Positions 1-62,394 of a DNA stretch of 64,000 nucleotides are shown one piece after another (the stretch's first letter is position 1; every line of letters starts with the position of its first letter). Source of the stretch: Eledone cirrhosa (lineage: Eukaryota). The position numbers were made by a program, and so were the translations under genes. The notes below the pieces were generated by a model. It was not told where the DNA came from. It searched no databases and saw only the letters and a program-made list of their open reading frames with translations. Location: positions 290,470,001-290,534,000 of the forward strand of contig OZ024743.1 of the NCBI GenBank assembly GCA_964016885.1. Reading direction: 5' to 3'.

Positions 1-3000
1 TTGAGGCTTTCTACACTGCCATGTACTACCCATCAAATACATCGAATACAGAACAGACATATATCAACTGGAAAAAGAAACATCCCGAAAACAGAGGCTA
101 TATTGACAGTAACAAACTAGCCAATATACGAAGAAATATTGTAAGAAAAAAGTTACTAACTGATATAGAAATTGATCAGATCAAGCTATTAGCACAAAGT
201 CATCGAAGGGAAAATGAAACATGTGTCAGTGAAAACGAGGTAAACTGTAACACTTCGAATCCCAGGGTTGGGGCGGAATCACTGGCAACAGAACAAATTA
301 AAGAAAGGATTGAAAAAGTGGAGGGAGTGCATGCTCAGGATGAAACTCCAAATGAAAATAATGAGATCGTAAATGATAAAGAAATGAATGAGTATGAACT
401 TGCCAACTTGAAGGATGAAATTATGATCGAATGGATGAAAATGAAAGAATCTGACATGGGGCAACGAGACACCCTCCCTAAGATCCAGAACTCCAAACAG
501 AACCAAAAGATAATACACAAGACTAACATAATTCTCAAAAACATTATCATCACAAACAAACTAAACATTACTGATTTAAATCATCTCTATTATGCATCGG
601 CTAAAATCACCACTCACTTATGTGGAGTGAAGATGAAAAAACAAAGGAATTCCCACAAGAAATCTACTTGGCAAGAGAACATCAATCGCCAAATAAACCT
701 TCTCCGATCTGACATAGAAATTTTAACAAACTATAAAGTAGGTGAACATGTTAAACAAACTAAACTTAGAAAATTGAAAAAAAAGTAAAGTATAAAATCA
801 ATATGTGACATAGACATGCTAATAGAAATAATCAAGCAAAAAGTGTCCACCAAAGCTGCTCGTATAAGGCGCTTTGAAAAACGATCTAGATTCTATAAGG
901 ACAATAATATGTTCAAAAACAACCAAAGAAACTTCTACAGAAAAATTGGTAAGTCAACAATAACTGCTAAATCAATACCACCCAAGGAGGAAGTGCAAGA
1001 GTTCTGGGAAAAAATCTGGGCCGAAGAAAAAGTTCATAACATACATGCCCCATGGATAGACAGACAAATGAAAGATACAGCTCACCTTGAGGAACAAACA
1101 TGGGAAAATATAACAGTTGAACAGTTGCGCTTGGCTCTAAGAAAAACCAACAAATGGAAATCCCCAGGAAAAGACAAAATACAAAACGTTTGGTTAAATG
1201 CCTTCACAGAGTCTCATGAGCTGTTAGCCCAACTTTACAATGAAATAGTTAAGGAGCCAGAAAAGATACATTCATGGCTAGTTAACGGCATTACATTCCT
1301 GCTTCCGAAGAATGATGAGACAAACAATCCCAAAAATTACAGACCGATAACTTGCTTGACCACAATGTATAACATTTTAACATCAGTCCTAACTGAATAC
1401 ACATATGACCACCTGATAACAAATGACCTATTTCCCATTGAGCAGAAAGGGTGTAAACGAGGCTCATATAGCTGTAAGGATCAGCTTCTGGTTAACAAAA
1501 TGATGCTGGAAGATTGTCATAATACACACAAAAATCTATCGATTGCTTGGATAGATTATAAAAAAAGCATTTGATAGTTTGCCACACAGTTGGATTGAGA
1601 AATGTTTAGAGATTTTCAAAATGTCCCCCGTTGTCAGGAGGTTTTTGTCATTCAGTATGAAGACATGGAAAACGACACTCCTTTTGAATAGTGAAACAAA
1701 ATCACTGGAAGCTGGAGAAGTTAATATTAATTGTGGAATTTTTCAGGGTGACTCTTTATCACCGCTTTTATTCTGCATCGCACTTATACCATTAAGTAAA
1801 ATGCTCAATGAAACAAAACATGGACATAAAGTCTATGACAAAACCATTAATCACCTGTTCTACATGGATGACCTGAAACTATTTGCAAAAAATGATGACC
1901 AATTGTAAGGGCTATTATCCTCTGTGAAGCAGTTCAGTGATGACATTAAAATGGAGTTTGGACTAGATAAATGCGCCAAAGCAACGTTCACCAGAGGAAA
2001 GCTGCTGAAGAGTTCAGACATTAATCTTGATCGGGGGAACGTGATAAGAGAACTTGATCAAGAAAAATCTTACAAATATCTGAAGGAGACGGAATCAAGC
2101 ACTCGACAATGAGGGAAAGGATAAGGAAGGAATGTTACCACAGAGTATGAGCAATCTTAAGAACGGAATTGAATGCAAGGAATAGGATCGATGCCATAAA
2201 CACGCTTGCCATACCAGTAGTAACCTACAGTTACAATGTCATCAACTGGTCAAACACAGAGATCCGTAGGCTCGATACAAAAATTCGAAAATTCTTAACC
2301 ATGCACAGAATGCATCACCCTAAAGCAGATATAGATAGAATATATCTCCCTAGGAAAGAAGGAGGACGTGGGTTAATCCAGTTAGACATTGCGTTGAAAA
2401 CTGCAACAATTGGATTATCTACATATCTAAGGGAATCACATGATTGGATGATCAAAATCGTTTTGAAACACGAAAGCATCAAAAGATCATATTCCATTAC
2501 AAAAGATGCACAAAGATACAGTAATGGACTACAAATTTCAGAAGTCTCATTTACTGCTGAAATGGAAAACACAGAAAAAGCAAAGCAGGTAAAAGTAACT
2601 GCAAAGAAAGAACTGCTACAGAAACTGGCTAAGAAATGGCAAGAAAAGCCTCTGTATGGAAAATACCCAGAGCGAGCTAACAATCCTGATGTTTGACAAA
2701 ACTTTAACACATCAGTGGTTGGCATCCTCTGGACTGAAATCGGAGACTGAAGGACTGATTATATCGGCACAAGATCAGTGTCTGCCAACAAAAAATTACC
2801 AAGCCAACATAATAAAAAATGGGTGCAGCCCATTATGCCGCGTATGCAAAAAACAACCAGAGACCATTGACCATATAATTTCAATGTGCAGTCCTATAGC
2901 TCCAACCGAATACCTAAACAGGCATGACAGAGCTGCACAATACATACATTGGATAATGTGTAAGCATTTTGACCTGCCCCATCAAAAGAATTGGTGGGAG

Positions 3001-3545
3001 CATCAACCACCTCCCATACTTGAAAAAGATCACATCTCAATCTTGAGGAACTTTAGCATCCAAACAGACCGAAAAATAGATGGAAACAGACCGGATATAA
3101 TATTGAAAGACTTTCAAAAGAGGGTATGCCTGCTAATTGATATGTCTGTTCCAATAGACAAGAATGTATCTATAAAAACATTTGAAAAATTGAGCAAGTA
3201 TAAGGACCTGGAGATAGAAATTGGAAAAATGTGGAAATTGAGAACTAAAACAATACCAGTGGTTGTGGGCGCTCTGGGAATGATACCTAAGGGGTCTAAT
3301 GATTACATATTGCAAATCCCAGGAAACCCGCGTATAGGAGAAATACAAAAGATAGTACTAATGGGAACTGCCCATATACTAAGGAAGATTCTGTCAATAT
3401 AAGTACATCACAAGTCTAAACACTAAAGATGCATGTGTGAATATGTATGTTCTTTCTTGAACATGGCGGACCTTGTTGTCTCTTGAGGTCACTGGTTGTG
3501 ACTTGGTGATAACTCGTATGAACATAAAGCAAGATAAATGCAACT

Positions 3546-3546
<1 letters not shown>
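1..3546 (+). mobile_element. R4/Dong-clade non-LTR retrotransposon (family Dong-1), near full length, disrupted ORF; 5' end lies outside the window
   Basis: ORF pieces 21-3402 give RT motifs (KSPGKDKI, NYRPITCL, WIDYKK, GIFQGDSLSPLLF, HLFYMDDLKLF), a CCHC finger (CRVCKKQPETIDHIISMC) and a restriction-like endonuclease (NRPDII..LIDMSVP..KLSKY). The 3' UTR ends directly in (TAA)n at 3547. Confidence 0.93.

Positions 3547-3577
<31 letters not shown>
3547..3577. repeat. (TAA)n linker between Dong-1 tail and Tx1-A tail
   Basis: Pure TAA tract with an element 3' end on each side. Confidence 0.97.
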
Positions 3578-3578
<1 letters not shown>

Positions 3579-6500
3579 TTTTCTTTATTAACCACAAGGG
3601 TTTACATAAAGTAGACATTAAGGACAGTACAGGACAATACAGGACGGTACAAATGGGCATTTCTGCGTGTAAAAAACAGAGGATGTAATAAAATAACAAA
3701 GAAAAATTCCCCAATAGGGGGGAGACTTCCGAGGGACATTTGTGGAGAAAGCCCATTAAAAGACCACAGTGACCCTGACCACCAGGACAAGTGCCCTCTC
3801 CCAGTTTTCCACCTTTAATTTACAGACACATACTCAGAGTAGGCACATTCACTCGGGCCATTCTTGCTTCTCTCACCCATCTTTCAACAAAATGCTGGTA
3901 AGAGAGCACTTCCCTCTCTACCCTGATTTTCCTTTTCAAATGAAATTTGAAAAAGTTAATCAGGGCATCACCGAAGAGGTAAGTGCTCGTCTTCAGCCCT
4001 TTCAAACGTGTCCACCATACTATCTCTTTCGCCATGGCCACCAGACAGAGAAAAACTGCCTGCCCTTTCCGACTAAAGGAAGAGGGCGGGGCAATCCTCA
4101 CGATGGACTCAGCTGATAGCTGGATCTGTCCTACACGTGACAGCAGGTGTTCGACACAAACCCACAAGTCAGCAATGCTCGGACACTGGACGAGTGCGTG
4201 CAGGACGGTTTCGTCGCCCTGCGCGCATCTCGGACATGCCCGGCTGACGGCACCTCCATGCCTGTAGAGTTTATCCCGAACTGGCAAAGCTCCCCGGTAG
4301 CACTGCTAGGCCAGGGATTTCTGGAAGTTGTCCATAGGCCCCGGCCCGAAGCCCTTCCGAAGAGATTGGCTAGTTGATTTTCGTCGACACCTAGAGTTTC
4401 TCCAAGTACGTCGTCGCTCTTCCCCTCCACTAATCCTCTATAGAACGCCAAGGTGGAGTTTCCACCGATCACATTGCCCGATTGGTCGAGGGCTGTGAGC
4501 GCCTGAAGACATTCCAGTCTCCAAGCGCTCCCTCTCGGTCTTCACTTGATCCAGGACTGCAGCTCCGTCAAGGAGACGAGCTGGGGAAATACGTGTCTAG
4601 CAAACGGCGACCACACCTGATCACCGTCGAGGAAGAGGTGGAGATGTCGTAGCCTGAGCGCGTGTCTGCGCTTCATCAGCCACGGCATGCCCAGCCCTCC
4701 ACGTAGCGGGTTTGACAGCAGATGGACCACCTGACTATCGAAGCGCGTCCCTTCCACAATAAGCGAAAGAGCAAACGCTCCAGCGCAGTCAGGCGGGGCT
4801 TAGAACGAGGTACGACGGTCAGGGGGTAGCAGATGACAGACGCGATGTACGCGTTAGCCACCTCCGCTCGACTTTTCAGGGATAGCTTCCTCTCGGCCCA
4901 TTTCTGGCTGAGAGAAACCACCCTGCTCGTCACCTCGTCCCAGTTTTTGTCCGTCTGGAGGTCCGGACCGAACCAGACCCCAAGCAATTTATCGGTCCGT
5001 CCGTCCAGCGCCCGACGACGCTGTTGGACGACATGGACCTGCCTCTCCAGGCGACGAGCTGCAGGCCCAATGACTTTTCCTGGTTGATCATTTCTCCTGT
5101 CACCGCTTTGTATTCTCTTAGTGTAGTGCCGAACGCCTCGATGTGTTTGGCGTTCGACACCACTACGGTGACATCGTCCGCATATGGTGACACGGATCTT
5201 CCGCATCCTAGTTCGCGCATGACCCCCCTTACCGTCTCCAGTTTGTGCAGTAATGGCTCGAGAGTCAATACGTACAAGAGGCACGAGAGGGGACATCCTT
5301 GGCGGACCGAGCGCATGATGTTGAACGGTTCCGAAAGGTAACCGTTCACTCTCACCACAGAGCAGATGTCGCTGTGCATGGCAGCGATGCAGCCTCTAAA
5401 GACGCGTCCAAAGCCAGCCGCCCTCAGGACTGCCGCTAGGTAACGATGGTCGACCCTATCGAAAGCTTTCGACTGATATAAATTTATCAAAGACCCACCC
5501 GTGCCAGGTTCCCTAGCTACCCTCTCTACGATGTATCGCATGAGGTGGAGGTTGTCGTGGATGGATCTGTCGGGAATGGCGCATGTCTGCGCCTCTCCCA
5601 CCAGACCACCTACGACAAGCGCCAACTTCTTTGCTCGCACCTTGGCCAAAATCTTGAACTCTGTGTTTAGCAGAGTTATGGACCTGAAATTATCTATGTT
5701 ATCCCCCTTGGTCTGATCCTTTCTCAGCAGCGCCACCGCTCCTCGGCTCACAGACCTGGGATTTCTCGCGTTCTGTTACCAGTTGCAGTAGACGTCCACC
5801 AAGAGGCCTCCGAACAAGTCTGGCATTTGTACGTAAATTTCATAGGGCAGACCATCCAAACCAGGCGATTTACCCCTTGTGCAGCCAGTCATTGCCTCCC
5901 GTACTTCAGCGGCTGTTATCGGAATTTCGCAACACTCCGCCTCAGTGGCCTAGAGCCGCGGCAGTCCGTCGAGTTAGACACTAAAGTCCATCCCTCGATC
6001 CGGCCCGCCGCTGCCCCCGAACAGTTGAGCGAAGTGTCGCTGAAAAGCTTCACAAATTTGCCCGGGATCGAGTAGCATGCGCCCGTCGTGGTCCACAAAG
6101 ACCGGATCGTGGCTTTGTTGCCACGACGCGCCTCCTCCACTCGGGCCCATTGAACGGCTTTCGTCCCGTCGTGTCTGAGAGCACGCACCCTAGCTCTGAC
6201 AACGCAGCCTTCGTGCTTTGCATTGAAGAATTGGTCAAGGGCCAATTTCACGGCAAGTAAGTCGGTCGCGATGCCTTTGCTAAGCGCCTCGTCTAATTTT
6301 CTAACTAATTCTCCATCTGCTCTATTTTTCTCTATTGCTAAAGCCTTACTAAACCTAATGGACTCTATTCTAATTGCTCTTTTCAGAGCAAACCACCACT
6401 TGTTGTTCACGATGGCCCCCGTCAACGCCCGCTTAATTAGTTCGCTAATCCGGTCTCTGTACGCCTTGCGCGCTGGTAAGGACGCGTTTAGCTTCCAGTA

Positions 6501-9399
6501 GCCTGGTCCTCGTCTATGAAGCCTATCTAAGTCAAGCACACAGATCACGAATTTGTGGTCCGTGTAGCTGACTATCTTCAATTGTGGACAGCCTATGCTA
6601 GACCTATCTATTTTCCTACAATATACTCTATCTAGATATGATCTGGATGACCCTATGCGATTTGTCCAAATCCATATTGTTACTTTCGGGAAATCCAATC
6701 GGTACCTGTCAGACAGTTCAAAACGGCTTAGCAGGTTGGTGAGACTCTTGCACCCTCCTCCCCTATCCACAAATCCCACACAGTCCCAGCGTGCATCTAA
6801 GATCCCTTTCCAGTCGCCCACTAACACTAAAGAGCGGGACGTTCCAAGAAAGGTCTCCAGACGCCGGAAGAAATCAGGCCGCCCTGCTCCTGTCGGGACA
6901 TAGACGGCCACTAACCTTAAAGCTTTCCCGTCTCCGCTGGTCACGTCCAGCACCACCAACTTACCTTCTGGGTCCAGGAAGATGGCCCGTATGGCAAGAC
7001 CTACACCGCTCCGAAAAAGCACAGCAACTCCACCCCCCGATCCCGGACGGCTGGGAGATGCGTACACATCGTAGCCGCCGAAGATCGGTGCGAAGGCCCG
7101 TGCTTCGGAGATTCTGGTCTCGCTGATGGCCATGTTTAGTGACCTGATGTCGTTGAGCAGGTGGCCCTGCTTCCATGACGACCCTAAGCCACGCGCATTT
7201 ATGCTGACTATTCTGAGTGAGCTAATGTTGAAATGGAGTGGAAAAGATGGGAAAGACCACTTACCTTACTTCTCGTAGAGGAAGGACGGTTTTTCCATCC
7301 TTTTCACTGCTTGTGGCATCCTCAGGAGGGATGTCCTTATAAATCCTCCTGGAGAGTGCTTGTCGGAAGTCTCCGATCTCCTTGGGTAATTTTTCTTTTA
7401 GTGTCATGTACGTTTTCTGTGTGATGCGAGTGATTTGTACGTGTGGAGGTGGTGTGAATTTTTGGGTTGTTGTGTAGTCTTTTTCTGTGATGCTGGTGTT
7501 GTGTTGGATGTAGTATAATAATTGGTTGCTGTTCAAATTTAATGCTGTGTAGTGTGTATCGTTTTGGTTTTTTTGTTTGGTTTTTTTATTTGCGTTTGTT
7601 GTGGGTTTTGTTTGTTTCGCATTTTGGTGACTTTTGTGGTGTAGGTGATGGTGGTGATAGTGTTGGTGTTTGGGATGATGAGGTTGGTGTATCTGGTGTT
7701 GATGGTGGCATATCTGTCCTAACTTTTTTGATTGTTAATTTATTTGTTTCCCTCTGTATTTTGTTTTTGGAGGGGGAAGGAAGAGAATTTTTTCTTTTTT
7801 GGTTTCTCTTTTTCTTTTTTCCTGATACCGTTTCCCACTCCTCGTCGTCACAATCTGTCTCCAGTTGTGATAGGCTGGGGAGTGTAAAATCCTCCACAGG
7901 CGTTAGTTTTGGTTGTGGCGTGGTGGATGGTGTAAGCGCTGGTGCCAGTCCTGAAGCGTTGGGTGGTGGTGGTGTTTTTTTTTGCTACTGTTGCTGGGGT
8001 TGTTGCTGTTACAGTTGCTTCTGTTGTTGCTGCCATTTCTGCTGTTGGTGGTGTTGATGGTTGACTCACTGGGGTGAGTAAGAGAGGTGGCCTCAACCTT
8101 TTAGCCTGAGGGCAGAAAGGCCTTAGGTGCGTTCCTTCTCCACAAACGACACACCTAGGCCTTCTGCCCTCGACGATTACGATAAGGAGGCTGCCGTCAG
8201 TTAGGTCTATTACCTCTGGGATCTCCTCAATGCTTTTTTGGTCCGCTTGGATCAGGAGCTCCATCCCAGATCCGGACCAGTTCTCCTGCTTTTCTTTCGC
8301 TATTTCGATTATCTTGGTGTTGGCTTCGATGCCGGCGAGGACGGCAGCTATTAGCTAGGGAATTTCGATGGCCGGTGGAACGTGAGTCACCCTGATCTTC
8401 ACGAGTCTCTGGCCACAATAGCTTGGGACGAGTGTGAAATCGTCACTTCTTAATGGGGCCATGGAGTGTTCTCTGGCCTCCTGTGATGTTTCAAAGTACA
8501 CATCCACGGATCCATATTTCTGCCCACGTCTGATGTGGGTTTCTTTTTCCCACACATGTCCCAAAGCTTTTTGGAATTGGGACTCGGATGCCCGTTCCCC
8601 TCGGCGCGATTTTATGTTAATCGTCCGATAAGACACTGTGCTTAACGGTGCATAGGCACCGATGCTCCGTTTTATTATGTGTGTGTGTGTGGGGGTGGGG
8701 GTGGGGCTGACCCTATACCCATCTTTCTTAACCATTTTCTTGGCTTCTTCTAATTCCTCCTGAGTTACCTGAAATGCTTCGCACTGTTTTGCTACTCTGA
8801 CAAAACTCAGGGTGGTCTTCTTAATTTCGTTGTTGCTGTTGTTGTTATCGTTATTTTTGTTATTGTTAATTTTAGTTTCAGTTGTAATGGTGGTGGCGTC
8901 AATGGTGTTCTGTATGGAAGAGTTCATTTTGGTTGCATTAATTTCGATATCACGAGTTAATTTATTTTTTTCTTTTGTTTCTGTTGTCGCTGTGGTGATG
9001 GTGGGGGTGGCGGCTTTAACAACTGAAGTCATTGGAAATGGCGGGAAATGAATGTCTGACTGAGACAAATTTAAAATATTGCTACTGCTTATATTTTTAG
9101 TGTTGGCAAACGTAGTAATATTTACAATGGTGGTGTCGGTGTGAGGTGTTTGTTTGTGAGGAAGGTGTGACACTGAGTCGTCCATGATATTTCCAAGAAC
9201 AATCTTTGTTTGATAATTATAAAGTTTAAATTTTGGGCTCAAGGCCCCAATCCTTTTGAGTGTCCTTTTCAGAAAACAATGTATGTGCACTTATATACAG
9301 TTAACAATAAAAATTATCCATAAATGGCTATTTTAAAAAAACTGAAAATAACAAACCTTTGCGGAGCTCAAGATAGTACGATTTAGCACGTTGGTCGCC
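3578..9399 (-). mobile_element. Tx1-clade (L1 group) non-LTR retrotransposon, subfamily A, full length, disrupted
   Basis: ORF1 (about 9290-7261) has a CCHC knuckle CVVCGEGTHLRPFC. ORF2 (about 7228-3820) has an APE endonuclease (ISETR, VGDW.G, SYLDR, TDH), RT (QSKAFDRVDH, SVRQGCPLS, YADD) and C-terminal CPRC..ETVLH..QC. The 3' end is AATAAA plus (ATT)n; the 5' end GGCGACC abuts a TAA tract, as in the copy at 53811. Confidence 0.92.
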
Positions 9400-9456
9400 A
9401 ATAATAATAATATTAATAATAATAATACTAATAATAATATTAACAATAATAATAAT
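9400..9456. repeat. Imperfect (AAT)n linker between Tx1-A 5' end and Tx1-B tail
   Basis: Read directly from the sequence. Confidence 0.95.
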
Positions 9457-10698
9457 GATTTCTTTATTGGCCACAAGGGCTGACATCAAGAAAAACATTA
9501 CAGATGGCACAGTACGGTACAGGACGGTACGATGTGGGTTTTGTGCGTGTACACATGTTTATTATTTATATAAGAAAAGAAAAAAGTATATAGAAACATA
9601 TATATATATAAACAATAACAGTGAAAAGAGAAACAATGAAAACTTCCCCAATAGGGTGGAAAACTCCGAGGGTTACTCGTGGCGAAAACCACACAAAAGA
9701 CCACGGCCACCCTGACCACCAGAGCAAGCGCCCTCTCTCAATTTTTTCATTTCTCAAACTACAGCCGTATATTCAGAGCAGTCCCGTTCACTCGGACTAT
9801 TCTCGCTACATTCACCCACCTTTCAACAAACTTGCTACAGGGCAGCACTAGCCTCTGCACCCAGATTTTCCTCTTTAAGTGATACCTGAAAAATTAGATA
9901 GGGATTCGCCGAAGAGGAAGTGTTTGTCTAACCCTTTAAACCTTGTCCACCACACAATCTCTTTCGCCATAGCCACCAGGCAGATGAAATCCGCCTGCCC
10001 TTCCTCCTCAAAAGAAGACGGCGAGACCATCTGCATAATGGACTCAGTCGATAACCGGATCAGTCCTACACGCGACAGCAACTGTTCGACATACCTCCAC
10101 AAGTCAGCAATGCTCGGCCACTGAACGAATGCGTGGACGACGGTTTCGTCGCTCTGTGGGCATCTCAGACAGGCTCGGCTGACGGCACTTCCGTGCCTGT
10201 AGAGCTTATCTCAAACCGGCAGCGCTCCCCGGTAGCACTGCCAGGCCAGGGATTTTTGGGAGTTATCTATAGGCCCTGGCTGAAAGTTCTCCGGAAGAGA
10301 GCAAACAGCTGATCTTCTTCGACGTCCAGCATCTCTCAGAGAATGTTGTCGCTCTTCCCCTCCACTAGTCCTGTATAGAATGCCGAGGTGGATGTCCACC
10401 GAAACTGGTTCCCAGCTGGCAGAGGGTAGTGAGCGCCTGGAGACATTCCAGTTTCCAAGCGCTATCCCTCGGTCTTTTTCTCACCCAGGACTGCAGCTCC
10501 GTCAAGGAGACGGCCTGTGGGAAAACGTGCCTGGCGAACGGCGACCACACCTGTTCACCGTCAAGGAAGCACCAGAGATGTCACAGCCTCAGCGCATGTT
10601 TGCGCATCATCAGCCATGGCATGCCCAGTCCTCCACGCAACGGGTGTTGACAGTAGATGGATCGTCTGACCATGGGAGCGCGTCCCTACAACAACAGC
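9457..10698 (-). mobile_element. Tx1-clade subfamily B, 5'-truncated (ORF2 C-terminus plus 3' UTR)
   Basis: WSPFARHVFPQ..LTELQSWV, QKSLAWQCYRGALPV and KEIVWWTR match Tx1-A. The distinct 3' UTR ends GCCCTTGTGGCCAATAAAGAAATC(ATT)n. Confidence 0.9.
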
Positions 10699-11837
10699 AT
10701 GCCGTGGCTAATGATGCGCAGACATGCGTTGAGGCTGCGACATCTCCAGCTATTCTGGCTCAACGGTGAACAGGTGTGGTCGCCGTTTATCAAACGGGCC
10801 TTTCCGCAGCTCATTTCTTTGACTGAGCTGCAGTCCTGGGTCAAGAATAGACCGAGACTGGGTGACTGGCACCTGGAATGTTGCCAGGCACTCAATTCCC
10901 TCTACCAAGCGGGCAATGCGATCAGTGGAACTTCCACTCTCGAGTTCTATAGAGGATTAGTGGTGGGCAAGTGCGATGACGCACTCGGAGAAGCTTTGAG
11001 CCTCGACGAAGTCGAACTGACCAGTCTGTACCGGAGAAATTTTGAGCCGGGGACGATGGACAATTCCAGAAATCCCTCGCTTGGCAGTGCTACCGGGGGG
11101 ACACTGCCGGTTCGGGATAATCTCTACAGACACGGAAGTGCTGTCAGACGGACCTGCCAAAGTATGCGCACAGAACTACGAAACAGTTCTGCACCCACTT
11201 GTCCAATGTCCATGCATTACTGACTTGTGGAGTTATGTCGAACAGCTTCTGTCGCGTGTGGATCGAATCCGGCTATCGGCCGAGTCCATAGTGAAGATCG
11301 ATCCACCGCCTTTCTTAGGTCAGGAAGAGCAGGAAATTTTCCTCTGTCTGGTGGCAGTTATATGGTGGACCGGGTTAAAAGGACTGAAGACAGGCACTTT
11401 TCTCTTCGGCCAATCCCTCATCAACTACTTCAAGTTTCACCTGGAAAGGAGGGTGAGGGTGGAGAGAGAAGTGCTGCCCTCCAGTACATTTGCTAAAAGG
11501 TGGGTGAATGTGGCGAGAATGTCTCGTGTGAATGGCCCTACTCTGACCATGCGCCTATAGGCTAGCTAACTTGAGGAGAGGGGTGCTCTCCCTGGGTGCC
11601 CTAGAAACGCAGGGTGGTTCAGGATTGGTGGGGTACGAGTCACCCCAGGGTCGTACACCCCCTATCGGTGAATTTATTTTGTTAAATTTATGCATAGTTT
11701 ATTTTATATTTTTATATTTTCATTGTTAAATTAGTCTTGCCATTGTGCACATTTACTCGACCTTATTGTAATCCCCCACTGTCCCTGTCTTTGTATTGTC
11801 CCCTATATGTCGGCCCTTGTGGCTAATAAATGAAATC
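10697..11837 (+). mobile_element. Tx1-clade subfamily C, 5'-truncated
   Basis: MPWLMMRRHALRLRHLQLFWLNGEQVW through GPTLTMRL; closely matches about 52420-53574; ends AATAAATGAAATC(ATT)n. Confidence 0.9.
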
Positions 11838-11865
11838 ATTATTATTATTATTATTATTATAGAAG

Positions 11866-12049
11866 GGCAGTGGATTGGCAGTATCGGTAGAGGGTCGGAC
11901 GCCATGCTTTCCAGCATAGTTACGTCCCTTTACAGTCTGAGTTCAAATCCCGCCGAGGTTGACTTTGCCTTTCATCCTTACGGGGTCGATAAAATAAAGT
12001 ACCAGCAATGCACTGGGTAATTGCTGGCCTTGTGCCTAAAGTAGAAACA
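11866..12049 (+). mobile_element. tRNA-derived SINE with (ATT)n tail
   Basis: A-box-like TGGCAGTATCGG, B box GAGTTCAAATCC, central GCCTTTCATCCTTACGGGGTCGATAAAATAAAGTACCAG; several copies in the window. Confidence 0.9.
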
Positions 12050-12077
12050 ATTATTATTATTATTATTATTATTATTA

Positions 12078-12915
12078 CAGTTGCATTTATCTTGCTTTAT
12101 GTTCATACGAGTTATCACCAAGTCACAACCAGTGACCTCAAGAGACAACAAGGTCCGCCATGTTCAAGAAAGAACATACACTACCACACATGCATCTGTA
12201 GTGTTTAGACTTGTGATGTACTTATATTGACAGAATCTTCCTTAGTATATGGGCAGTTCCCATTAGTACTACCTTTTGTATTTCTCCTATACGCTGGTTT
12301 CCTGGGATTTTCGATAAGTAATCATTAGACCCCTTAGGTATCATTCCCAGAGCGCCTACAACCACTGGTATTGTTTTAGTTCTCAATTTCCACATTTTTC
12401 CAATTTCTATCTCCAGGTCCTTATACTTGCTCAACTTTTCAAATGTTTTTATAGATACATTCTTGTCTATTGGAACAGACATATCAATTAGCCGGCATAC
12501 CCTCTTTTTAAAGTCCTTCAATATTATATCAGGTCTATTTGCATCTATTTTTCGGTCTGTTTGGATGCTAAAGTTCCACAAGATTGAGATGTGATCTTTT
12601 TCAAGTATGGGAGGTGGTTGATGCTCCCACCAATTCTTTTGATGGGGCAGGTCAAAATGCTTACACATTATCCAATGTATGTATTGTGCAGCTCTGCCAT
12701 GCCTGTTTAGGTATTCGGTTGGAGCTATAGGACTGCACATTGAAATTATATGGTCAATGGTCTCTGGTTGTTTTTTGCATACACGGCATAATGGGCTGCA
12801 TCCATTTTTTATTATGTTGGCTTGGTAATTTTTTGTTGGCAGACACTGATCTTGTGCTGATATAATCAGTCCTCCAGTCTCCGATTTCAGTCCAGAGGAT
12901 GCCAACCACTGATGG

Positions 12916-12916
<1 letters not shown>
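12078..12916 (-). mobile_element. Dong-1, 5'-truncated (zinc finger, RLE and 3' UTR)
   Basis: ORF 12222-12905 is nearly identical to 2656-3402; TTA tracts on both sides. Confidence 0.93.
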
Positions 12917-12957
<41 letters not shown>

Positions 12958-14527
12958 AATAATAATAGTTGTTGTTTTTGTTGTTATTAGGACGTGAAAG
13001 AAGAGGATTGAGAATAAGAAAGAAAACACAATGTACTTGCAAATGATGAAAGCGACAGGCGCATGTTAGATAAACTTCGAATCAACTGGAGTACTACCTT
13101 TCATTCAATGAGATAATTCAGTAATCTAAATATCAATGTTTAGTCAGCTACGCCAAACAGCAGGGATTTATGACAATCGAAATCCTGAAGCATATGCGGG
13201 AATGTACTGGAGAAAGATTGCCGTGTAATTGTTAAACAGATTTTCTACAATAAGAATGTCATAAAACAATGTGTGTCATTGTTTATTTAGAATATCAAAT
13301 GGATTGAGCTATAGAACTTTATGTACAGATTTCACAATGGCCATGTTTGGAAATAAGAAATAATATCCTAAATTGGTGAAAAGTTATGAATGGGTATTAC
13401 AAATATCGATATGGTGTAAATATCTTTCTTGTTGACAGTTGATCTGCAAATACCCTTTGTGATTCGTTTAATACAAATGTCCGTGACTGTATCTGAAAGC
13501 TTAAATCCTAATGGAGTTTGTAGAAACAGATCCACAGTAATCTGCCCATATGATTGTGTAATATACCAACTTGATCAATAAGCATGATATATAGATAAGT
13601 CAATGATAAATGCTATCTGACTCTTCCTCTTGAGATAAATGAAAAGTATCATGATGAGAAATACACGATTCAAAATGAAATGAATATTGTTAATGAAAAG
13701 ACCGGGCGAGTATTACGTTCTGAAGGAATTTATTCGATTCAGATCAAGTATGTCAACGGCAGACAATGTTGGTCTTTAGTATTTCGTGGTATATTACAAC
13801 TTGACAGTATCAGGAATAAAGGCATGAATACAAAATTGATGAATAGAAGAACACAGTTCTTAAATGAAAACGGAACTGTCAGAATGATGTCAGTTAAACT
13901 TTAGAGTGCCTTCGATTTATTGGTTACGTATTATTGAACTTGACCGTTTATATTTGTCATAAACAGAATCGTAAAACACGTGAAAGAAAAATATAATAGA
14001 ACTGCGGTTTATAGAAGAGGGATTTTATATGTTACATGACATTTAATATAGCTACAGGTTTCAAGAATATATGAAGACGAAAATATAATTAATAACCCTT
14101 TACCAATATATTTGAACATAGGAGATAAAGATATTTTACATATTTCAAATATATTAACTCTATATTAAAAACCTGCATGTACTATTTGAATTTAAAAATG
14201 GATATATAAAACATATTCTCTTATATAGTAAATTCAAATATATTTTCACGTTTAGAGAGCCATGCTTTGAATATAATCGCATATGCTTATATAGAAAAAC
14301 GTGTTTTTATTTTATTTATATAGTTCTTCATGCAGTAGCATTCTGTACGATTTTTGTATTTTGGCTTTATTATATTTCCTCTTAGTCTCCCGTGTTATTA
14401 GCACAGTCTTCGTGTTTTAGATTCTTAATGTTAGTTTTTGTTGGTTGTATTGTGGTTGTTATTTGTTTTATGATAATATATGCTTACTTTTACGTGCTGT
14501 TATATACAAATTGCTGATATTATTGTT

Positions 14528-21322: not shown

Positions 21323-21377
<55 letters not shown>

Positions 21378-21379
<2 letters not shown>

Positions 21380-24300: not shown

Positions 24301-24788
24301 GTGGTTGGTTTTGGAGATGTAAGAAAGGAGGGTGGTGACAAGGGGGGCAAGGATGGAGTTAAGAAAGGCGGAGATGAGTTCGGTGGGGCAGTTGCGAGCG
24401 GAGAATTTGGGGCAGCCGGGGTTGTCGGGTTTGTGGAGTTTGGGGAGGAAGTAGATAGTAGGAGTGCGGGGGGTGCGGACGATGAGGTGGGAAACGGTGG
24501 GAGGGAGGAGGTAGGAGGAGACAAGGTGTCTGATGGTGGAGGGAACTTGTTATTGGTAGAGGGTTCGAAAGGTAGAGGTCGGTAGAAGAGGGGGTTACGA
24601 ACCTGCCTGGGGGCTTCTGTGATGTAGAGGTCAGCGCGCCAAACCACCACGGCGCCTCCCTTGTCCGCCGGTTTGATGACGATGTCATCTCGGCTACAGA
24701 GGGAGCAGAGAGCGAGGAGTTCGCCCCGTGAGATGTTATTTCGTTTGGAACGGTGGCGGAAGTTGAAGTGATTAACTGCGCAGGCGGC

Positions 24789-24790
<2 letters not shown>
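21378..24790 (-). mobile_element. Penelope-like element (Poseidon type), 5'-truncated and decayed, between (TA)n tracts
   Basis: [13 protein letters not shown] (ORF 24237-24902), QVTGVAMGTRMGP..YIDD (23910-24119) and GIY-YIG NLVYGLRCTECSATYVGQTGRRL..EH (23032-23574); C/A-rich 3' UTR with a hammerhead-like motif. Confidence 0.88.
21462..21489 (-). ncRNA. Degenerate minimal hammerhead ribozyme in the PLE pseudo-LTR
   Basis: Minus strand reads CTGAAGA-ggagcttatgacc-GAAACGTC; stems I and II are weak. Confidence 0.55.
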
Positions 24791-24830
<40 letters not shown>

Positions 24831-24903
24831 GTATACACACGCACACACACACACACATGTATATATATATATATACATACACATATATATATATATATAC
24901 ATT

Positions 24904-24978
<75 letters not shown>

Positions 24979-24982
<4 letters not shown>

Positions 24983-25100
24983 ATGTTTAAACCCGACAGC
25001 AGAACGCGAGCCGTTTCGACGGCTATTTCTGGACTTTTTACCCACTCTACTACCCTAAGTATTGAGTACTCTGGTGCTTTATGGTTCATCTGTAGTTACC
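24979..25100 (+). mobile_element. Short TA-flanked element of the CCCGACGGCAGAGCTCAAGCCG family
   Basis: Arm plus tail (CACTCTACTACCCTAAGTATTGAGTACTCTGGTGC) shared with 26408, 28603, 33569 and 42376. Confidence 0.7.
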
Positions 25101-25292: not shown

Positions 25293-25345
<53 letters not shown>

Positions 25346-25518: not shown

Positions 25519-25606
<88 letters not shown>

Positions 25607-48914: not shown

Positions 48915-51900
48915 TCGGGAAGCAGCATCTGCAAGCCTTCTGCCCTCAGCGCAAACATGCAGGGGGTTGCAAACCTCCTTTGTTGCCAACGCCAGTGTCA
49001 GCACGGAAAGCTGCACCACCACCACCACCAAAACCAACATCAACAAAAACACGGACACCAACATCAAAAGCAGCCGGTTCACCACCAACACCAAAACCAA
49101 TCCAAGGGAAAAACGAGGAAAGATCCCCCCCCCCCCAATTATACACATAGACAAAACAATAAACGAACACACAGACACAGAGAGACTCACAGCCACAGAC
49201 CCTTTGTCTTCCAGTAGCGAAGATGAAGGGAAACCCAAAAGTGCAAAAAAACAGACAAAACTCACAAAAAAAAAAGCCCCAACAAAACATAAAAACATAC
49301 ACAACAAAAAATACAGACACCACTAACGCAAACACTTACCCAATAACATCATTACCAACAGCAACATCGACACCGCCTCCACAATCCCCGAAACGCAAAC
49401 AACCTAAACAAACACAAGTACAAATAAACACACAAATACCTGAAATTGCAGACACCACACCTACAACAAACACAGACATACCCGAAACAACACCACCAAA
49501 ACCATCACCCCACAGTCACCAAAACGAAAACATATAAAACCACACCAGCAAAATGTTAAAAACTTCGTGCTTGTCAGAAGGGCCAACGATAAACTGATGG
49601 CCCTCATAGCACGAAGCGAGGACATTCAAACAGAGGGGAAGATTTTTGAAATGAGCACATTTTGCGTGCCAGAAGATTTGCTTCTGGTCCGAATGTCACT
49701 CAATTCGTTCAAAGAAATTCGAGAGAGTTTCCTCGGGACGTGGGAACCTGAATGTGAAACACACATCAATACTTTTAAAGGGGTTCCCAAAATAAACCCC
49801 ACCAACCATGGAGGTCGAACCACCCGACCTTCACAAGACCCCGGGAGGTAAGTAAACCTTCCCTCTCTCTCTTAGCTTACCAATATGGCCATATTAAGAG
49901 TAGGAAGTTTAAATGTTCGCGGCCTGGGGTCACCCTGGAAGCAGGGTCGCCTGCTCAACGACCTCAGGTCGCTGTAAATGGATGTGATTGCAGTCAGCGA
50001 GACCAGAATTTCCGACACGCACGCACTAGCCCCCATTTTCGACAACTATGAGATCTTCGCATCTGTTAGCAGACCGGGAATGGGGGGTGGGGTGGCAGTG
50101 CTGTTTAGGAAAGGACTGGATCTCGAGGTAAGATCAATCTTCCGGGACCCGGACGGTAAGTTGGTGGCCTTGGATGTGAGCAGTAGCGAAAGTGGTGCTT
50201 TTAGACTGCTGGCCGTCTACGCCCCTACAGGGGCCGGACGACCGGACTTCTTTAGGCGCCTGGAGACCTTTCTGGGTACATCTCGCCATTTACTGTTAGC
50301 AGGGGACTTGAATGGTATCTTAGACGCACGCTGGGATTGTGTGGGAATAGCCGATAGGAGCAGGGAGTGCGAAAGCCTCCAGCACCTTCTCAGCCAGTTC
50401 CAACTCTCTGACAGGTATCGACTAGATCTCCCCAATGTGCCAGTATGGACATGTACCAACCGAATGGGGGTAATCTAGATCGTCTATAGACAGGATCTTC
50501 ATTAGGAAAATAGATAGAAATAGTGTGGGATGCCCACTTTTTAAAACGGTCGCCTATTCAGATCACAAATTCGGTCGACCTAGATAAAACGCGTAGGTTA
50601 GGACCGGGTTACTGGAAGCTGAACATGTCATTTCCGGCACGTAAGGCTTACAGGGACCGAGTCAACAATTTAGTTAAGCAAAAGTTGACAGGGGGGCTCA
50701 TCAACATCAGATGGTGGGGGGCTCTCAAAAGAGAGATTAGAGTAACTTCGATAGAGTTCAGCAAAGAACTAGCGTTAGAGAAAAATAGAAATGAGGGGGA
50801 GCTGGTAGATAAGTTAGACGAGGATATTTGTAGTGGCATTGCAACTGACGTGCTAGCGGCGAGAATGGCATTAGACCATTTCTACAATGCGAAACACGAA
50901 GGTTACATTGTCAGAGCTAAGGCGCGTGCGCTGAGAAACGAGGGAACCAAAGCTGTTCCATGGGCCCGCGTGGCAGAGGCGGAGCGTTGTAATAAAACCA
51001 CAATTCGGTCTTTCGCGGACCGAGACGGACACGAGATAAGCGATTCCAAGCAGATGTGTGAGGCCTTTCGCCAGCAATTTGCTCGGTTGTTCGGGGAGAG
51101 TGGCGAGTCAGAGTGATTAGCGGATTTCAGTCCCTACCTTGACGGCTTGCCGCGCATCTCGTCGGTTGACGCTGAGCGCTGCGAAAGACTGATTACTTCA
51201 GCCGAAATTCAGGACGCCCTTGTCGTTTGCATAAGGCGCAAGTCACCGGGTTTGGATGGCCTGCCCTACGAGCTTTACGTAAATATGCCAGACTTGTTCT
51301 CCGAACTCCTCGAAGCACTTTACTGCAACTGGCAGCAGAATGGAAGTATTCCCAGTTCTGTGAGCAGGGGAGTGGTGACGCTGATAAGGAAAGACGAGAA
51401 CAAGAAGAATACATTAGAAAACTTCCTGGCCCGTAACTCTGCTCAACACAGAGTTTAAGATTTTGGCCAAGGTATTAGCAAATAGATTGGCGCTTGTCGT
51501 CGAGGATTTGGTTGTGGAGGCGCAAAATTGCGCAATCCCAGCCAGGTCCATACACGACAATCTCCACCTCAGGCGATACATCATAGAGAGGGTAGGTGTA
51601 AACCTGGCTTCGGTGGGGCACTGATCAATTTAGATCAATCGAAATCATTCGATAGGGTCGACCATCGGTATCTGGAATTTGTCCTCAAAGCAGCTGACTT
51701 CGGCCCTGTCTTCAGAAGCTGGACCGCTGCAATGCACGGCGGCACACGCTCGGTTGTCAAGGTTAATGGCCACATCTCGGAACCATTTCGGCTCTCCCGA
51801 TCGGTCCGTCAAGGGTGCCCTCTCTCTTCCCTTCTGTACGTATTGACTCTCGAACCTTTACTGCGGAAGCTGCAGCTGTTGCAGGGCATACCGCTCGAAC

Positions 51901-53574
51901 CGGGACGTGGAGAGGCGGTGTCGTCTTATTCGGACGACATCACCGTGATGGTGTCGAACACCTCAGAAATCGAGGGGGTCGGCACCTCATTGATGGAATA
52001 TGAAAGGTGGACAGGAGCCAAACTTAACCCGGAAAATCGGTGGGCTTGCAGCTCGGAACCTGGAGAGGCAAGCCCATGCCGTCCAACAGCGTCGTGGGGC
52101 GCTGAACGGATGGACCGGTAAAGTTGCTCGGGGTTTGGTTCGGACCAGACCTCCAGGTGGAAAAAATAGGGACGAGGTAACGAGCAGAGTAGCCAGTCTC
52201 ACCCAAAGATGGACTGGCAGGAAGCTATCACTGAAAGGTCGAGCGGAGGTGGCGAACGCGTACATCGCGTCCGTCATCTACTACCGCCTGACCGTCGTGC
52301 TTTGCCCCCGTCCGCCCCTCGTCAAGTTGGAACGGCTTCTCTTCACATTTTTGTGGAGAGGACAAGTTCCGTTGGTGAGGCGGTCAATCTGCTGCCATCA
52401 CCCTCTACGCGGAGGGCTGGGCATGCCGTGGCTATTGATGCGCAGGCATGCGTTGAGGCTGCGACATCTCCAGCTATTCTGGCTCAACGGTGAACAGGTG
52501 TGGTCGCCGTTTATCAGACGGGCCTTTCCGCAGCTCATTTCTTTGACTGAGCTGCAGTCCTGGGTCAAGAATAGACCGAGACTGGGTGACTGGCACCTGG
52601 AATGTTGCCAGGCACTCACTGCCCTCTACCAAGCGGGCAATGCGATCAGTGGAACTTCCACTCCCAAGTTCTATAGAGGATTAGTGGTGGGCAAGTGCGA
52701 TGACGCACTCGGAGAAGCTTTGAGCCTCGACGAAGTCGAACTGAACAGTCTGTACCGGAGAACTTTTGAGCCGGGGACGATGGACAATTTCCAGAAATCC
52801 CTCGCTTAGCAGTGCTACCGGGGGGCACTGCCGGTTCGGGATAATCTCTACAGACACGGAAGTGCTGTCAGACGGACCTGCCCACTATGCGCACATAACG
52901 ACGAAACAGTTCTGCACGCACTTGTCCAATGTCCGTGCATTACTGACTTGTGGAGTTATGTCGAACAGCTACTGTCGCGTGTGGAACGAATCCTGCTATC
53001 GGCCGAGTCCATAGTGAAGATCGATCCACCGCCATCCTTAGGTCAGGAAGAGCAGGACATTTTCCTCTGTCTGGTGGCAGTTGCGAAAGAGGTTATATGG
53101 TGGATCAGGTTAAAAGGACTGAAGCCAGGCACTTTTCTCTTCGGCCAATCCCTCATCAACTTCTTCAAGTTTCACCTGGAAAGGAGGGTGAGGGTGGAGA
53201 GAGAAGTGCTGCCTTCCAGTACATTTGCTAAAAGGTGGGTGAATGTGGCGAGAATGTCTCGTGTGAATGGGCCTACTCTGACCATGCGCCTATAGGCTAG
53301 CTAACTTGAGGAGAGGGGTTCTCTCCCTGGGTGCCCTCAGAAGCGCAGGGTAGTTCAGGATTGGTGGGGTACGAGTCACCCCAGGGTCGTCCACCCCCTA
53401 TCGGGGAATTTATTTTGTTAAATTTATGCATAGTTTATTTTATATTTTTATATTTTCATTGTTAAATTAGTTTTTGCCATTGTGCACATTTACTCGACCT
53501 TATTGTAATCCCCCACTGTCCCTGTCTTTGTATAGCCCCCTATACGTCGGCCCTTGTGGCTAATAAATGAAATC
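48915..53574 (+). mobile_element. Tx1-C, truncated within ORF1, ORF2 complete but disrupted
   Basis: ORF1 stop at 49851; ORF2 ATG at 49885 (MAILRVGSLNVRGL); APE, RT (SVRQGCPLS, YSDD) and zinc finger; stop at 53295; AATAAA plus (ATT)n. Confidence 0.92.
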
Positions 53575-53596
53575 AGTATTATTATTATTATAGAAG

Positions 53597-53780
53597 GGCG
53601 GTGGATTGGCAGTATCGGTAGAGGGTCGGACACCATGCTTTCCAGCATAGTTACGTCCCTTTACAGTCTGAGTTCAAATCCCGCCGAGGTTGACTTTGCC
53701 TTTCATCCTTACGGGGTCGATAAAATAAAGTACCAGTAATGCACTGGGTAATTGCTGGCCTTGTGCCTAAAGTAGAAACA
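53597..53780 (+). mobile_element. tRNA-derived SINE between ATT tracts
   Basis: Nearly identical to 11866-12049, including the 5' flank TATAGAAG. Confidence 0.92.
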
Positions 53781-53810
53781 ATTATTATTATTGTTATTAT
53801 TATTATTATT

Positions 53811-56800
53811 GGCGACCTACGTAGTAAATCGTATCATCGTGAGCTCCGCAAAGGTTTGTTATTTCCGTTTGTTAAAAATTGACATTTATGGAAAATTTTT
53901 ATTGTTAACTATATATATGAGCACATACAATGTTTTCCGAAAAGGACACCCAAAAAGATTGGGGCCTTGTGCCCAAAAGTTAAACTTTTATGATTATCAA
54001 AAAATTTCTTTGAAAAAAAATGGCTAATTCACCACTGCACCAAGCATCTGAAAGCCTTTCTCACAAATTAACACCTCACACCGAGACCACCATTGTAAAT
54101 GATTATACGTCTTCCAACACAAACAATTTATGCACTAGCAATATTTTAAATTTGTTTCAGGCAGACATTCATTTCCCGCCATTACCAATGACTGCAGGTG
54201 TTAAAGCCGCCGCCACCACCACCACCGCGACAACCCCCACCCGCACCACCACCGCGACAACAGAAACAAAAGGAAAAAATAAATCAACTCGTGATGTCGA
54301 AATATTTTCAACCAAAATGGACTCTCCCAAACCGAACTTCACTGACGTCACCACCACCACAACTGAAACTAAAATTAATAATAACAAAAATAACGATAGC
54401 AACAACAACAGCAATGACATTAAAAAACCACCCTGAGTTTTGCCACAGTAGCAAAACAGTTCGAAGCATTTACGGTAACTCAGGAGGATTTAGAAAATGC
54501 CAAACAAATGGTAAAGAAAGATGGGTACAGGGTCAGCCTCCCCCCCTCCCCCCTAATAAAACGGAGCATCGGCGCCTGTGCACCGTGTCGTATCGAACAA
54601 TAAATGTAAAATCGCGCCGAGTGGAACGGGCATCCGAGTCCCAAATCCAAAAAGCTTTGGGACATGTGTGGGCAAGAAAAACCCACATCAGACGTGGACA
54701 GAAGTATGGAACCGTGGACGTGTTCTTTGAAACACAAGAGGAGGCTAGAGAACACTCCATGGCCCCATTAAAAGTGACGACTTCACACTCGTCCCAAGCT
54801 CTTGTGGCCAGAGACTCGTAAAGATCAGGGTGACCCACGTTCCACCGGCCATCGAAATTCCCTGGCTAATAGCGGCCGTCCTCGCCGGCATCGAAGCCAA
54901 CACAAAGATAATAGCAATAGCAAAAGAAAAGCAGGAGAACTGGTCCGGATCTGGGATGGAGCTCCTGATCGAAGCGGACCAAAAAAGCATTGAGGAGATC
55001 CCAGAGGTAATAGACCTCACTGACGGCAGCCACCTCACCGTAATTGTCGAGGGCAGAAGGCCTAGGTGTGTCGTTTGTGGTGAAGGAACCCACCTAGGGG
55101 CTTTCTGCCCTCAGGCTAAAAGGTTGAGGCCACCTCTCCTACCCACCCCAGTGACACAACCATCAACACCACCAGTAGCAGAGATGGCAGCATCAACTGT
55201 AGCAGCAACAACAGAAGCAACTATAACAGCAACAACCCCAGAAACAGTAGCAAAACCAACACCACCACCACCCAACGCTTAAGAACTAGCACCAGCGGCT
55301 ACACCATCCACCACGCCACAACCAAAACTAACGCCTGTGGAGGATTTTCCACTCCCCGGCCTATCACAACTGGAGACAGATTGTGACGACGAGGAGAGGG
55401 AAACGGTATCAGGAAAAAAAAAAGAGACCAAAAAATAAAAAAATTCTCTTCCTTCCCCCTCCAAAAACAAAATACAGAGGGAAACAAATAAATTATCAAA
55501 CAAAAAAGTTAGGACAGATATGCCACCATCCACACCAGCATCACCAACCCCATCAACCCAAACACCAACACCATCACCATCATTAACCTCAACACCACCA
55601 TCACCTACACCACAAAAGTCACCAAAATGCGAAACAGAAACAAACCCACAACAAACGCACACAAAACAAAACAACCAAAACGATACACACTACACAGCAT
55701 TAAGTTTGAACAACAATGGCGGTGGATTGGCAGTATCGGTAGAGGTTCGGACGCCATGCTTTGACGCATAGAGTTACGGCCCTTGCCATTCTGAGTTCAA
55801 ATCCCGCCGAGGTTAACTTTGCCTTTCATCCTTACGGGGTCGATAAAATAAAGTACCAGTAATGTACTGGGTAATTTTCTGGCCTTGTGCCAATAGTAGA
55901 AACAATTAAGTTTGAACAACAACCAATTATTACACTACATCCAACACAACACCAGCATCACAGAAAAAGACTACACAACAACCCAAAAATTCACACCACC
56001 TCCACACATACAAATCACTCGCATCACACAGAAAACGTACATGACACTAAAACAAAAATTACCCAAAGACATCGGAGACTTCCGACAAGCACACTCCAGA
56101 AGGATTTATAAGGACATCCTTCCTGAGGTGGCCACAAGCAGTTTAAAGGATGGAAAAACCGTCCTTCCCCTACGAGAAGTAAGGTAAGTGGTCTTTCCCA
56201 TCTTTTCCACTCCTTTTCAACATGACCTCACTCAGAATAGGCAGCATAAATGCGCGTGGCTTGGGTCGTCATGGAAGCAGGGCCACCTGCTCAACGACCT
56301 CAGGTCAGTAAACATAGATGTAGTGGCCATCAGCGAGACCAGAATCTTCGAAGCACGGGCCTTCGCACCGATCTTCAGCGGCTACGATGTGTAGCATCTC
56401 CCAGCCGTCCGGGATCGGGAGGTGGAGTTGCTGTGCTTTTTCGGAGAGGTTTGGATATTTCCATACGGGCCATCTTCCTGGATCCAGAAGGTAAGTTGGT
56501 GGTGCTGGACGTGACCAGCGGAGACGGGCAAGCTTTAAGGTTAGTAGCCGTCTATGCCCCGACAGGAACAGGGCGGCCTGATTTCTTCCGGCGTCTGGAG
56601 ACCTTTCTTGGAATGTCCCGCTCTTTAGTGTTAGTGGGCGACTGGAACGGGATCTTAGATGCACGCTGGGATTGTGTGGGATTAGTGGATAGGGAAGGAG
56701 GGTGCAAGAGTCTCACCAACCTGCTCAGGCGTTTTGAACTGTCTGACAGGTACCGAATGGATTTCCCGAATGTACCAATGTGGACTTGGACAAATCGTAT

Positions 56801-59800: not shown

Positions 59801-59881
59801 GCCCATTTTTACCGTCCTGTATTGTCCTGTACTGTCCTTAATGTCTACTTTATGTAGACCCTTGGGGTTAATAAAGAAAAC
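53811..59881 (+). mobile_element. Tx1-A, full length, disrupted, with a nested SINE
   Basis: 5' GGCGACC directly after (ATT)n; ORF1 about 54020-56187; ORF2 56222-59638 (long open stretch to 58226); 3' AATAAAGAAAAC(ATT)n. Confidence 0.94.
55718..55904 (+). mobile_element. SINE inserted in Tx1-A ORF1 with an 18-bp TSD
   Basis: ATTAAGTTTGAACAACAA at 55699-55716 and 55905-55922; the empty site is present in the other Tx1-A copy at about 7526-7543. Confidence 0.95.
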
Positions 59882-59903
59882 ATTATTATTATTATTATTA
59901 TTA

Positions 59904-62362: not shown

Positions 62363-62394
62363 TTATTACTATTATTATTATTATTGTTGTTATT

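Follow-up and report, generated by a model that had tools for sequence, protein, structure and literature searches.

Tx1-like and Dong-like retrotransposons in opposite orientation on a shared ATT/TAA microsatellite of Eledone cirrhosa

At the left end of a 64,000-nucleotide stretch of the Eledone cirrhosa genome (assembly GCA_964016885.1, contig OZ024743.1, positions 290,470,001 to 290,534,000; this whole stretch is hereafter the window, and its first letter is position 1), retrotransposons stand end to end on tracts of the trinucleotide TAA or, on the other strand, ATT. Two kinds of long interspersed nuclear element (LINE) take part, namely Tx1-like elements with an apurinic-type endonuclease (APE) and Dong-like elements with a restriction-like endonuclease (RLE), accompanied by a short interspersed nuclear element (SINE). 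How do unrelated LINEs come to face opposite ways on a single microsatellite, and what becomes of that landing site once it has been used? The answer that we regard as probable, from comparison of the sequences, is that these are polarised trains in which Tx1-like LINEs run along (ATT)n and Dong-like LINEs along (TAA)n, priming in each case starting from a nick in whichever strand is complementary to the 3' end of the element's own RNA.

The elements and their target across the genome

The preliminary description of the window assumed two unrelated nuclease types, and domain and homologue evidence agrees: the APE is N-terminal in the Tx1 types and the restriction-like nuclease C-terminal in the Dong types. 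The intact ORF2 of the Tx1-D family (locus L111) matches the Pfam families Exo_endo_phos (1.6e-14), RVT_1 (1.3e-29) and zf-RVT (1.1e-8), its best relative of solved structure is LINE-1 ORF2p (E 2.4e-56), and the Tx1 fragments in the window carry the same APE, reverse transcriptase (RT) and zf-RVT domains; a 642-codon frame of ORF1 size, matching no Pfam family, adjoins ORF2 upstream in locus L108. The Dong-1 protein, a 1071-codon open stretch in locus L122, matches R2 proteins over residues 304-1022 (E 3e-27), a span running from the RT to the C-terminus, and has no APE family among its Pfam matches. Dong-2, at window 62385-64000, is a second RLE family with the same motifs as Dong-1, read by eye in both, which we take to be CCHC, RHD and PD..D..K. 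Because neither the 23 Tx1 homologues include a named Tx1, Kibi or Koshi element nor the 120 of 705 Dong-1 homologues listed a named Dong or R4 reference, the clade names follow architecture and target, not a reference tree; the Tx1 label also keeps the name given in the preliminary description. Homologues in other organisms are 41-44% identical, contigs from four public runs cover ORF2 at 80-95% likeness, with loose ends that, where listed, stop short of the flanks, no RNA data set appears among the public runs listed as containing it, and the Tx1-D copies are near-intact and 99-100% identical to one another. Counted by exact 3'-end patterns, which give lower bounds, the 3.0-Gb genome contains at least 3685 Tx1-C/D/E/G ends (the first pattern), at least 10012 Tx1-A/F ends (the second, which captures Tx1-A) and at least 2397 Dong-1 ends.

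The fixed opposite orientation of Tx1 and Dong on the microsatellite, claimed for the window, extends to the genome as a whole. For this comparison, 5' ends were defined by chained annotation, an all-against-all definition having been rejected as confused by inner deletions and shared flanks; dropped before counting were L102 (a duplicate of L087), L088 and L101 (old and divergent), L152 (end unreached), L161 and L044 (sequence from the wrong side of the element), and L043 and L059 (5' flank not covered). Tx1-A 5' ends are directly preceded by ATTATT in 1681 of 1757 cases (95.7%), and an ATT tract precedes every one of the best 30 Tx1-A 5' matches, the window copy included. When full-length copies were selected by their 3' end, the tract was present at 19/19 heads of Tx1-C/D/E/G (two duplicate pairs included) and at 14/14 heads of Tx1-A/F, and it is kept by full-length Tx1 copies whose first bases differ from those of Tx1-A. 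Since the Tx1-A 5' tract varies from 3 to 24 units (median 16) and its upstream neighbours vary too, it is not a fixed end of the element. At Dong-1 minus-strand 5' ends, TAATAA lies within 9 bases in 517 of 605 cases (plus-strand matches were multiply counted, hence excluded), as against the opposite-strand TTATTA at 6 of 1154 sites, and TAA was found at 26 of the 27 Dong 5' junctions scored, full-length and truncated together. Across 369 distinct tracts at least four units long, which were gathered via element ends and are not an independent sample, Tx1 heads read ATT in 127/127 cases, SINE heads ATT in 38/39 and Dong heads TAA in 68/69, the lone Dong exception being a SINE piece miscalled as Dong. 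The background is low: two or more ATT units occur within 15 bp upstream of 1968 of 114080 random positions (1.7%).

A second microsatellite preference within the same Tx1 radiation is suggested by a small sample of sister copies, about 72-74% identical to Tx1-D, in which nine 3' ends are TATCTAT or (ATCT)n, three truncated heads stand behind ATCT tracts and one duplication begins TATCTAT (L214:1430-5550, L212:5848-7553, L295:2730-8370, L219:3256-3400, L261:744-2418). In a tree built from 18 C-terminal ORF2 sequences, this ATCT lineage forms a supported clade next to two supported ATT clades, with their branching order unsettled. The APE stretch aligned to the LINE-1 hairpin, a region linked to specificity in TRAS1 and R1Bm in the text available of PMC1919474, differs between the lineages, reading TWTNRIGSSRSY in the ATT and TWSNRSGTSRSY in the ATCT elements. 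Within the ATT elements, Tx1-F (L066:7766 on the minus strand, L097, L242, L247) carries a distinct 5' 2.2 kb, comprising the untranslated region (UTR) and ORF1, on a Tx1-A ORF2, which suggests that ORF1 was exchanged while the preference for ATT was retained.

That the SINE, like the LINEs, is tied to the tract is a part of the preliminary description that we cannot uphold: it needs no more than ATTA. Forty evenly spaced 10-kb genome samples yielded 41 SINE 3' ends, most of them outside microsatellites; a duplication of 7-25 bp is present in 24 of the 41 copies, beginning with ATTA in 21 and preceded by C or T in 20 of these 24. Compared by eye, the SINE and Tx1 3' ends have about 21 of their last 29 bases in common, and the SINE is likely mobilised by the Tx1 enzyme with a looser requirement, bare ATTA. 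The 45-bp SINE head also occurs in tandem arrays (L087:31-5022, with more than 100 copies; L081:5021-5914; L083:7819-8408), and a fixed SINE 3' fragment lies within the 5' UTR of full-length Dong-1 (L126:940-1010). In the same UTR (L126:1090-1190), nested complementary stretches follow a double-pseudoknot order, by eye, in a form unlike the usual hepatitis delta virus (HDV) loop and without Rfam match. No HDV-like ribozyme was matched by Rfam in a full-length Dong-1 copy, no search having been aimed at ribozymes, and the Rfam scan of four full-length loci returned chance matches only.

Elements of these kinds are clustered. On contig C1, neighbouring Tx1-A ends are no more than 15 kb apart in 40 of 99 cases, where 3.4 would be expected, and 34 of these 40 are same-sense; a LINE is present on the upstream side of the tract in 19/30 Tx1-A heads versus 5/23 random tracts (p=0.005). 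Five regions picked for hit density contain interstitial trains of up to about 30 kb and 13 elements with one polarity, and the trains combine families in varied orders and ages. The proposal that the array is a self-renewing landing site is therefore retained in a weaker form, which draws on the clustering and leaves out renewal by the Tx1 tail.

Priming, tract renewal and competing explanations

In target-primed reverse transcription, the first nick falls in the strand opposite to the element sense (PMC1919474), so the AAT strand would supply the primer for Tx1 and the TTA strand that for Dong. Judged by the duplications, the nick for Tx1 and the SINE would fall at 5'-TAAT/R. Tx1 would thus nick the AAT strand at this T/purine step, the freed ...TAAT-3' would pair with AUUA at the end of the Tx1 RNA, and the second cut would follow about 15 bp further on; Dong would perform the mirror reaction on the TTA strand. 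One insertion would split the tract in two and duplicate about five units, and in that case a landing site would be gained with every train member. A second cut at ATT/ATT would agree with the uniform ATT|G head; both cuts being at T/purine steps, the two strands could be cut by a single APE, and the polarity could stem from the pairing of AUUA with the primer. A strand-specific nuclease is then not required, since base-pairing between the primer and the RNA 3' end can be enough to fix the polarity. Of the earlier idea that two endonucleases use opposite strands, the unrelated types and the opposite orientation stand; under target-primed reverse transcription, an element reading ATT is primed from the TAA strand.

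The preliminary description went further and had each insertion rebuild the target with its own tail, in that a nuclease reads one strand only and the RNA-templated repeat tail of each copy becomes the next target. Near-absolute polarity would suit this, and so would the long TAA runs at Dong-1 3' ends, of which only 1/30 has two units or fewer; with such runs at nearly all ends, Dong may indeed add a tail of its own. For Tx1, the tail model mostly fails: the 3' run has two perfect units or fewer in 7/30 Tx1-A and 18/40 Tx1-C/D/E copies, and at imperfect sites, where 4/12 copies show a 14-17 bp duplication with nothing added, that duplication begins at the element 3' end itself. The uniform ATT|G 5' junction is also consistent with the ATT strand receiving the second cut, again at a T/A step. 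We therefore consider the tail model unlikely as a whole and take the Tx1 tract to be renewed, as is likely, by splitting and a target duplication of about 15 bp. A different arrangement was seen at L097:6548-7552 and L112:634-1647 (minus), where the initial 345-408 bases of a different Tx1 family stand on both sides of a truncated Tx1; a very long target duplication or 5' capture are possible origins.

Several observations weigh against priming from paired strands of a common target as we have described it. Truncated Tx1 5' junctions (n=32), which were scored by eye, comprise 14 with a clear tract, 6 with either one ATT or some near-cognate repeat, and 12 with none, a gap that counts against strict Tx1 specificity; one of the 12, the copy at L098, stands in TAA-strand sequence with a duplication of its own. 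Six of the 40 close Tx1-A pairs are opposite-sense. A duplication was sought and not found at 8 of the 12 imperfect sites, including two full-length copies with a 3' tract of one or two units, and the median length is 16 units for 5' tracts, 7 for 3' tracts and only 3 for random tracts, a 5' excess that plain splitting and duplication does not explain. Adjacency by itself does not reveal the order of insertion. The shortfall in truncated copies is probably secondary in part, since 8/17 full-length loci are internally deleted or cut short and some tract-less junctions are two headless neighbours joined. The preliminary description had named a majority of Tx1 5' junctions without ATT, or random orientation, as the outcome that would speak against it; full-length copies are far from either, whereas among truncated copies a clear tract is limited to the 14/32. 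Both figures, 1681/1757 and 14/32, exceed the 20% of flanks taken as the mark of target specificity in PMC4494074.

The contrast between 96% of full-length and 44% of truncated heads can be read in another way: the 5' tract may be partly borne on the RNA, through a start in, or read-through of, the donor tract, with the cDNA end pairing with an ATT run in the target and the nuclease being as loose (ATTA) as that used by the SINE. The long 5' tracts and the lack of a unique duplication at L247 and L120 are in keeping with this, and R2 RNA with upstream target sequence has been described (PMC3774820, in the part available). Nevertheless, the tract frequency of truncated copies is about 25 times the 1.7% background, 0/30 sampled heads fall below three units, and pairing of this kind still demands a pre-existing tract. 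We hold this explanation to be rather doubtful as a replacement for paired-strand priming, with which it can be compatible. Dispensing with targeting altogether, by invoking tail slippage, duplication (tandem or segmental) and the selective survival of insertions in dead DNA, has some basis in the duplicated locus pairs among the sampled loci and in a Tx1-C and SINE block duplicated inside the window; it cannot, however, yield a 5' tract of one phase and one strand in 1681/1757 cases, and it sits poorly with trains of mixed families, orders and ages and with the finding that, between the two window trains, neither the Dong parts nor the 5' Tx1-A parts pair as nearest neighbours. That explanation is largely refuted, and we give it very little credence.

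The two trains of the window

The left train was described as six elements abutting on TAA/ATT tracts with a single exception at 10697, and all six are found there, in the expected orientations. On the plus strand, a 5'-truncated Dong-1 (1..3546, starting at -123, with RT, CCHC, RHD and PD..D..K motifs and a broken frame) meets Tx1-A tail-to-tail at a (TAA)10 tract (3547..3576). Tx1-A (3578..9399, minus strand) is full length at 5.8 kb, with an ORF1 region and an ORF2 (APE, RT, zf-RVT) in broken frames; its 5' terminus is ATT|GGCGACC and its 3' terminus AATAAAGAAAAC|ATT. An imperfect (TAA)19 tract (9400..9456) separates its head from the tail of Tx1-B (9457..10696, minus strand), a 5'-truncated element of which the 3' 1.24 kb are present, at 78% identity to Tx1-A. 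Polarity then flips at a direct head-to-head junction (10690..10705), with near-homologous ORF2 end positions in both elements, and Tx1-C follows on the plus strand (10697..11837; 5'-truncated, 3' 1.14 kb, paralogue at window 52421-53575). An (ATT)7 tract (11838..11860) divides Tx1-C from the 189-bp SINE (11861..12049, plus strand), which is 98.4% identical to window 53592-53780 and has a 3' end like Tx1 3' ends; a tail-to-tail (ATT)9 junction (12050..12077) leads to a 5'-truncated Dong-1 (12078..12916, minus strand, 3' 0.84 kb), and the train ends in (TTA)13 then (TAA)4 (12917..12965), a second, small flip of polarity.

Elements thus fill 12777 of the 12967 bases of positions 1-12967 (98.5%). 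Full-length Dong-1 is about 4.9 kb, and both left-train copies lack their 5' part; open frames are interrupted by stops or frameshifts in the copies of Dong, Tx1-A and Tx1-C. Upstream of the window, a TAA tract, a full Tx1-A (-5764..-173, minus strand) and another TAA tract add a seventh member. The left train consists of two sub-trains of opposite polarity, head-to-head at 10697, with TAA on the plus strand to the left and ATT to the right, and, judged by the neighbouring tract of each element, Dong does read along the TAA strand and Tx1 and the SINE along the ATT strand, as first described.

A second train (48917..64000) has a single polarity, with Tx1-C(+), SINE(+), Tx1-A(+, with an inner SINE), Dong-1(-) and Dong-2(-), and contains the other copy of the Tx1-C and SINE block (52421-53780), 42 kb from the first. 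The Tx1-C and SINE right of 10697 have their nearest relatives there (rank 1 of 26 and rank 1 of 86, respectively), the two copies differ by 42 mismatches over 1396 columns, and the 28-base Tx1-C/SINE junction, with six occurrences in the genome, stands behind a Tx1-C tail only in the two window copies. From these ranks and the shared junction, the block is evidently a local copy, made by DNA duplication or read-through retrotransposition. The six left-train elements therefore represent at most five events, and their treatment as independent insertions has to be given up, Tx1-C and the SINE having arrived as one duplicated block. The junction sequence at 10697 occurs once in the genome, and the flip there probably goes back to a later rearrangement through which this block was imported; the ORF2 positions at which Tx1-B and Tx1-C stop differ by no more than about 70 bases, and we speculate that such near-equal endpoints would suit loop loss from an inverted pair. 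Among the public-run records listed, none spans 10697, which is uninformative either way. Duplication of whole trains between left and right was ruled out, with nearest neighbours found only for Tx1-C and the SINE.

Other repeats lie in and near these trains. The SINE within Tx1-A at window 55715-55904 has a 17-19 bp duplication beginning ATTAAG, and a SINE at the same position (about base 1857-1876) occurs in many Tx1-A copies (L073, L075, L078, L225 and the L270-L280 region), which suggests a SINE-bearing subfamily or a hot site. Two inverted repeat pairs occupy window 21323-26354 (79% over 0.79 kb) and 28720-32971 (98.9% over 0.8 kb), the latter flanking an RT-bearing frame at 29482-31026. 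Just past the right end of the window, L063:6480-8792 (minus) has a 771-codon frame, without Pfam support, that looks Penelope-like; the end of its repeat adjoins ATT tracts in L031, L041, L182 and L237. In L184, L185, L208, L215, L217 and L232, a repeat ending …CACTGTACACAATAATTTC is followed by ATT runs and twice serves as host to a Tx1-A.

Relation to known target-specific elements

Each ingredient of this arrangement is known separately; the comparisons here draw on the text available of the papers cited. Dong of Bombyx mori and its relatives DongAg and DongBg, of the R4 lineage, target the TAA microsatellite (PMC3812793), and the Dong 5' junction lies behind TAA on the sense strand, as seen in a primer sequence given in PMC3774820. 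The Dong-like elements here share this target, its strand and the RLE type; unlike Dong, they comprise two families that occupy the same tracts as APE elements, in interstitial trains of great length. Among APE elements, Kibi, Koshi and crocodilian Tx1 insert in (TC)n, (TTC)n and (TTCC)n/(TTTC)n, and a Tx1 group likely mobilises a SINE with a common target preference (PMC4494074). Microsatellite specificity in a Tx1-like APE element recurs in E. cirrhosa, probably together with a SINE partner, whereas the target is here (ATT)n and, in the sister lineage, ATCT. Neither ATT nor TAA is mentioned as a target in the text of PMC4494074 (0 hits), further targets being in its Fig. 3 and supplements, outside this comparison.

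Opposite-strand sharing has its precedent in TRAS1 and SART1, two LINE families inserted in opposite directions in (TTAGG)n, for which RNA-to-target pairing was proposed (PMC7265360). Those two are both R1-clade APE elements at telomeres, whereas one RLE and one L1-like APE group are here combined on a dispersed interstitial microsatellite. Keno (Tx1, APE) and Utopia (RLE) likewise converged on one target, the U2 snRNA genes (PMC4640811), but at the same site and with the same 3' flank, whereas the elements here use opposite strands of a repeat that insertion duplicates. Dong-R4 is listed as abundant in an octopus genome (PMC13282606), and papers on the repeats of octopuses include Dong-R4 and L1-Tx1, or Dong, in their lists but give no targets for them (PMC13282606, PMC9115989). 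The parts available of PMC3747384, PMC4824008, PMC4758252 and PMC8869645 hold nothing on ATT/TAA sharing. An ATT-specific Tx1 or a Tx1-Dong pairing was not found in the accessible literature, which consists mostly of open papers without Repbase, and a prior description is quite possible.

Our findings add (ATT)n to the list of Tx1 targets and unite opposite-strand sharing with APE/RLE convergence in one system that offers thousands of natural junctions. Tentatively, and more as a possibility than an expectation, we propose an undescribed Tx1 radiation, split between (ATT)n and (ATCT)n by a few APE changes, that would build self-feeding interstitial trains together with Dong on the other strand, amounting to a percent or more of the 3-Gb genome, with the strand set by RNA-primer pairing and not by the nuclease. 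The close ATT and ATCT relatives and the near-intact Tx1-D make a pair suited to the question of nuclease hairpin versus RNA-DNA pairing. The system also offers a concrete cause for hotspots of transposable elements and for unreliable trinucleotide markers in such genomes.

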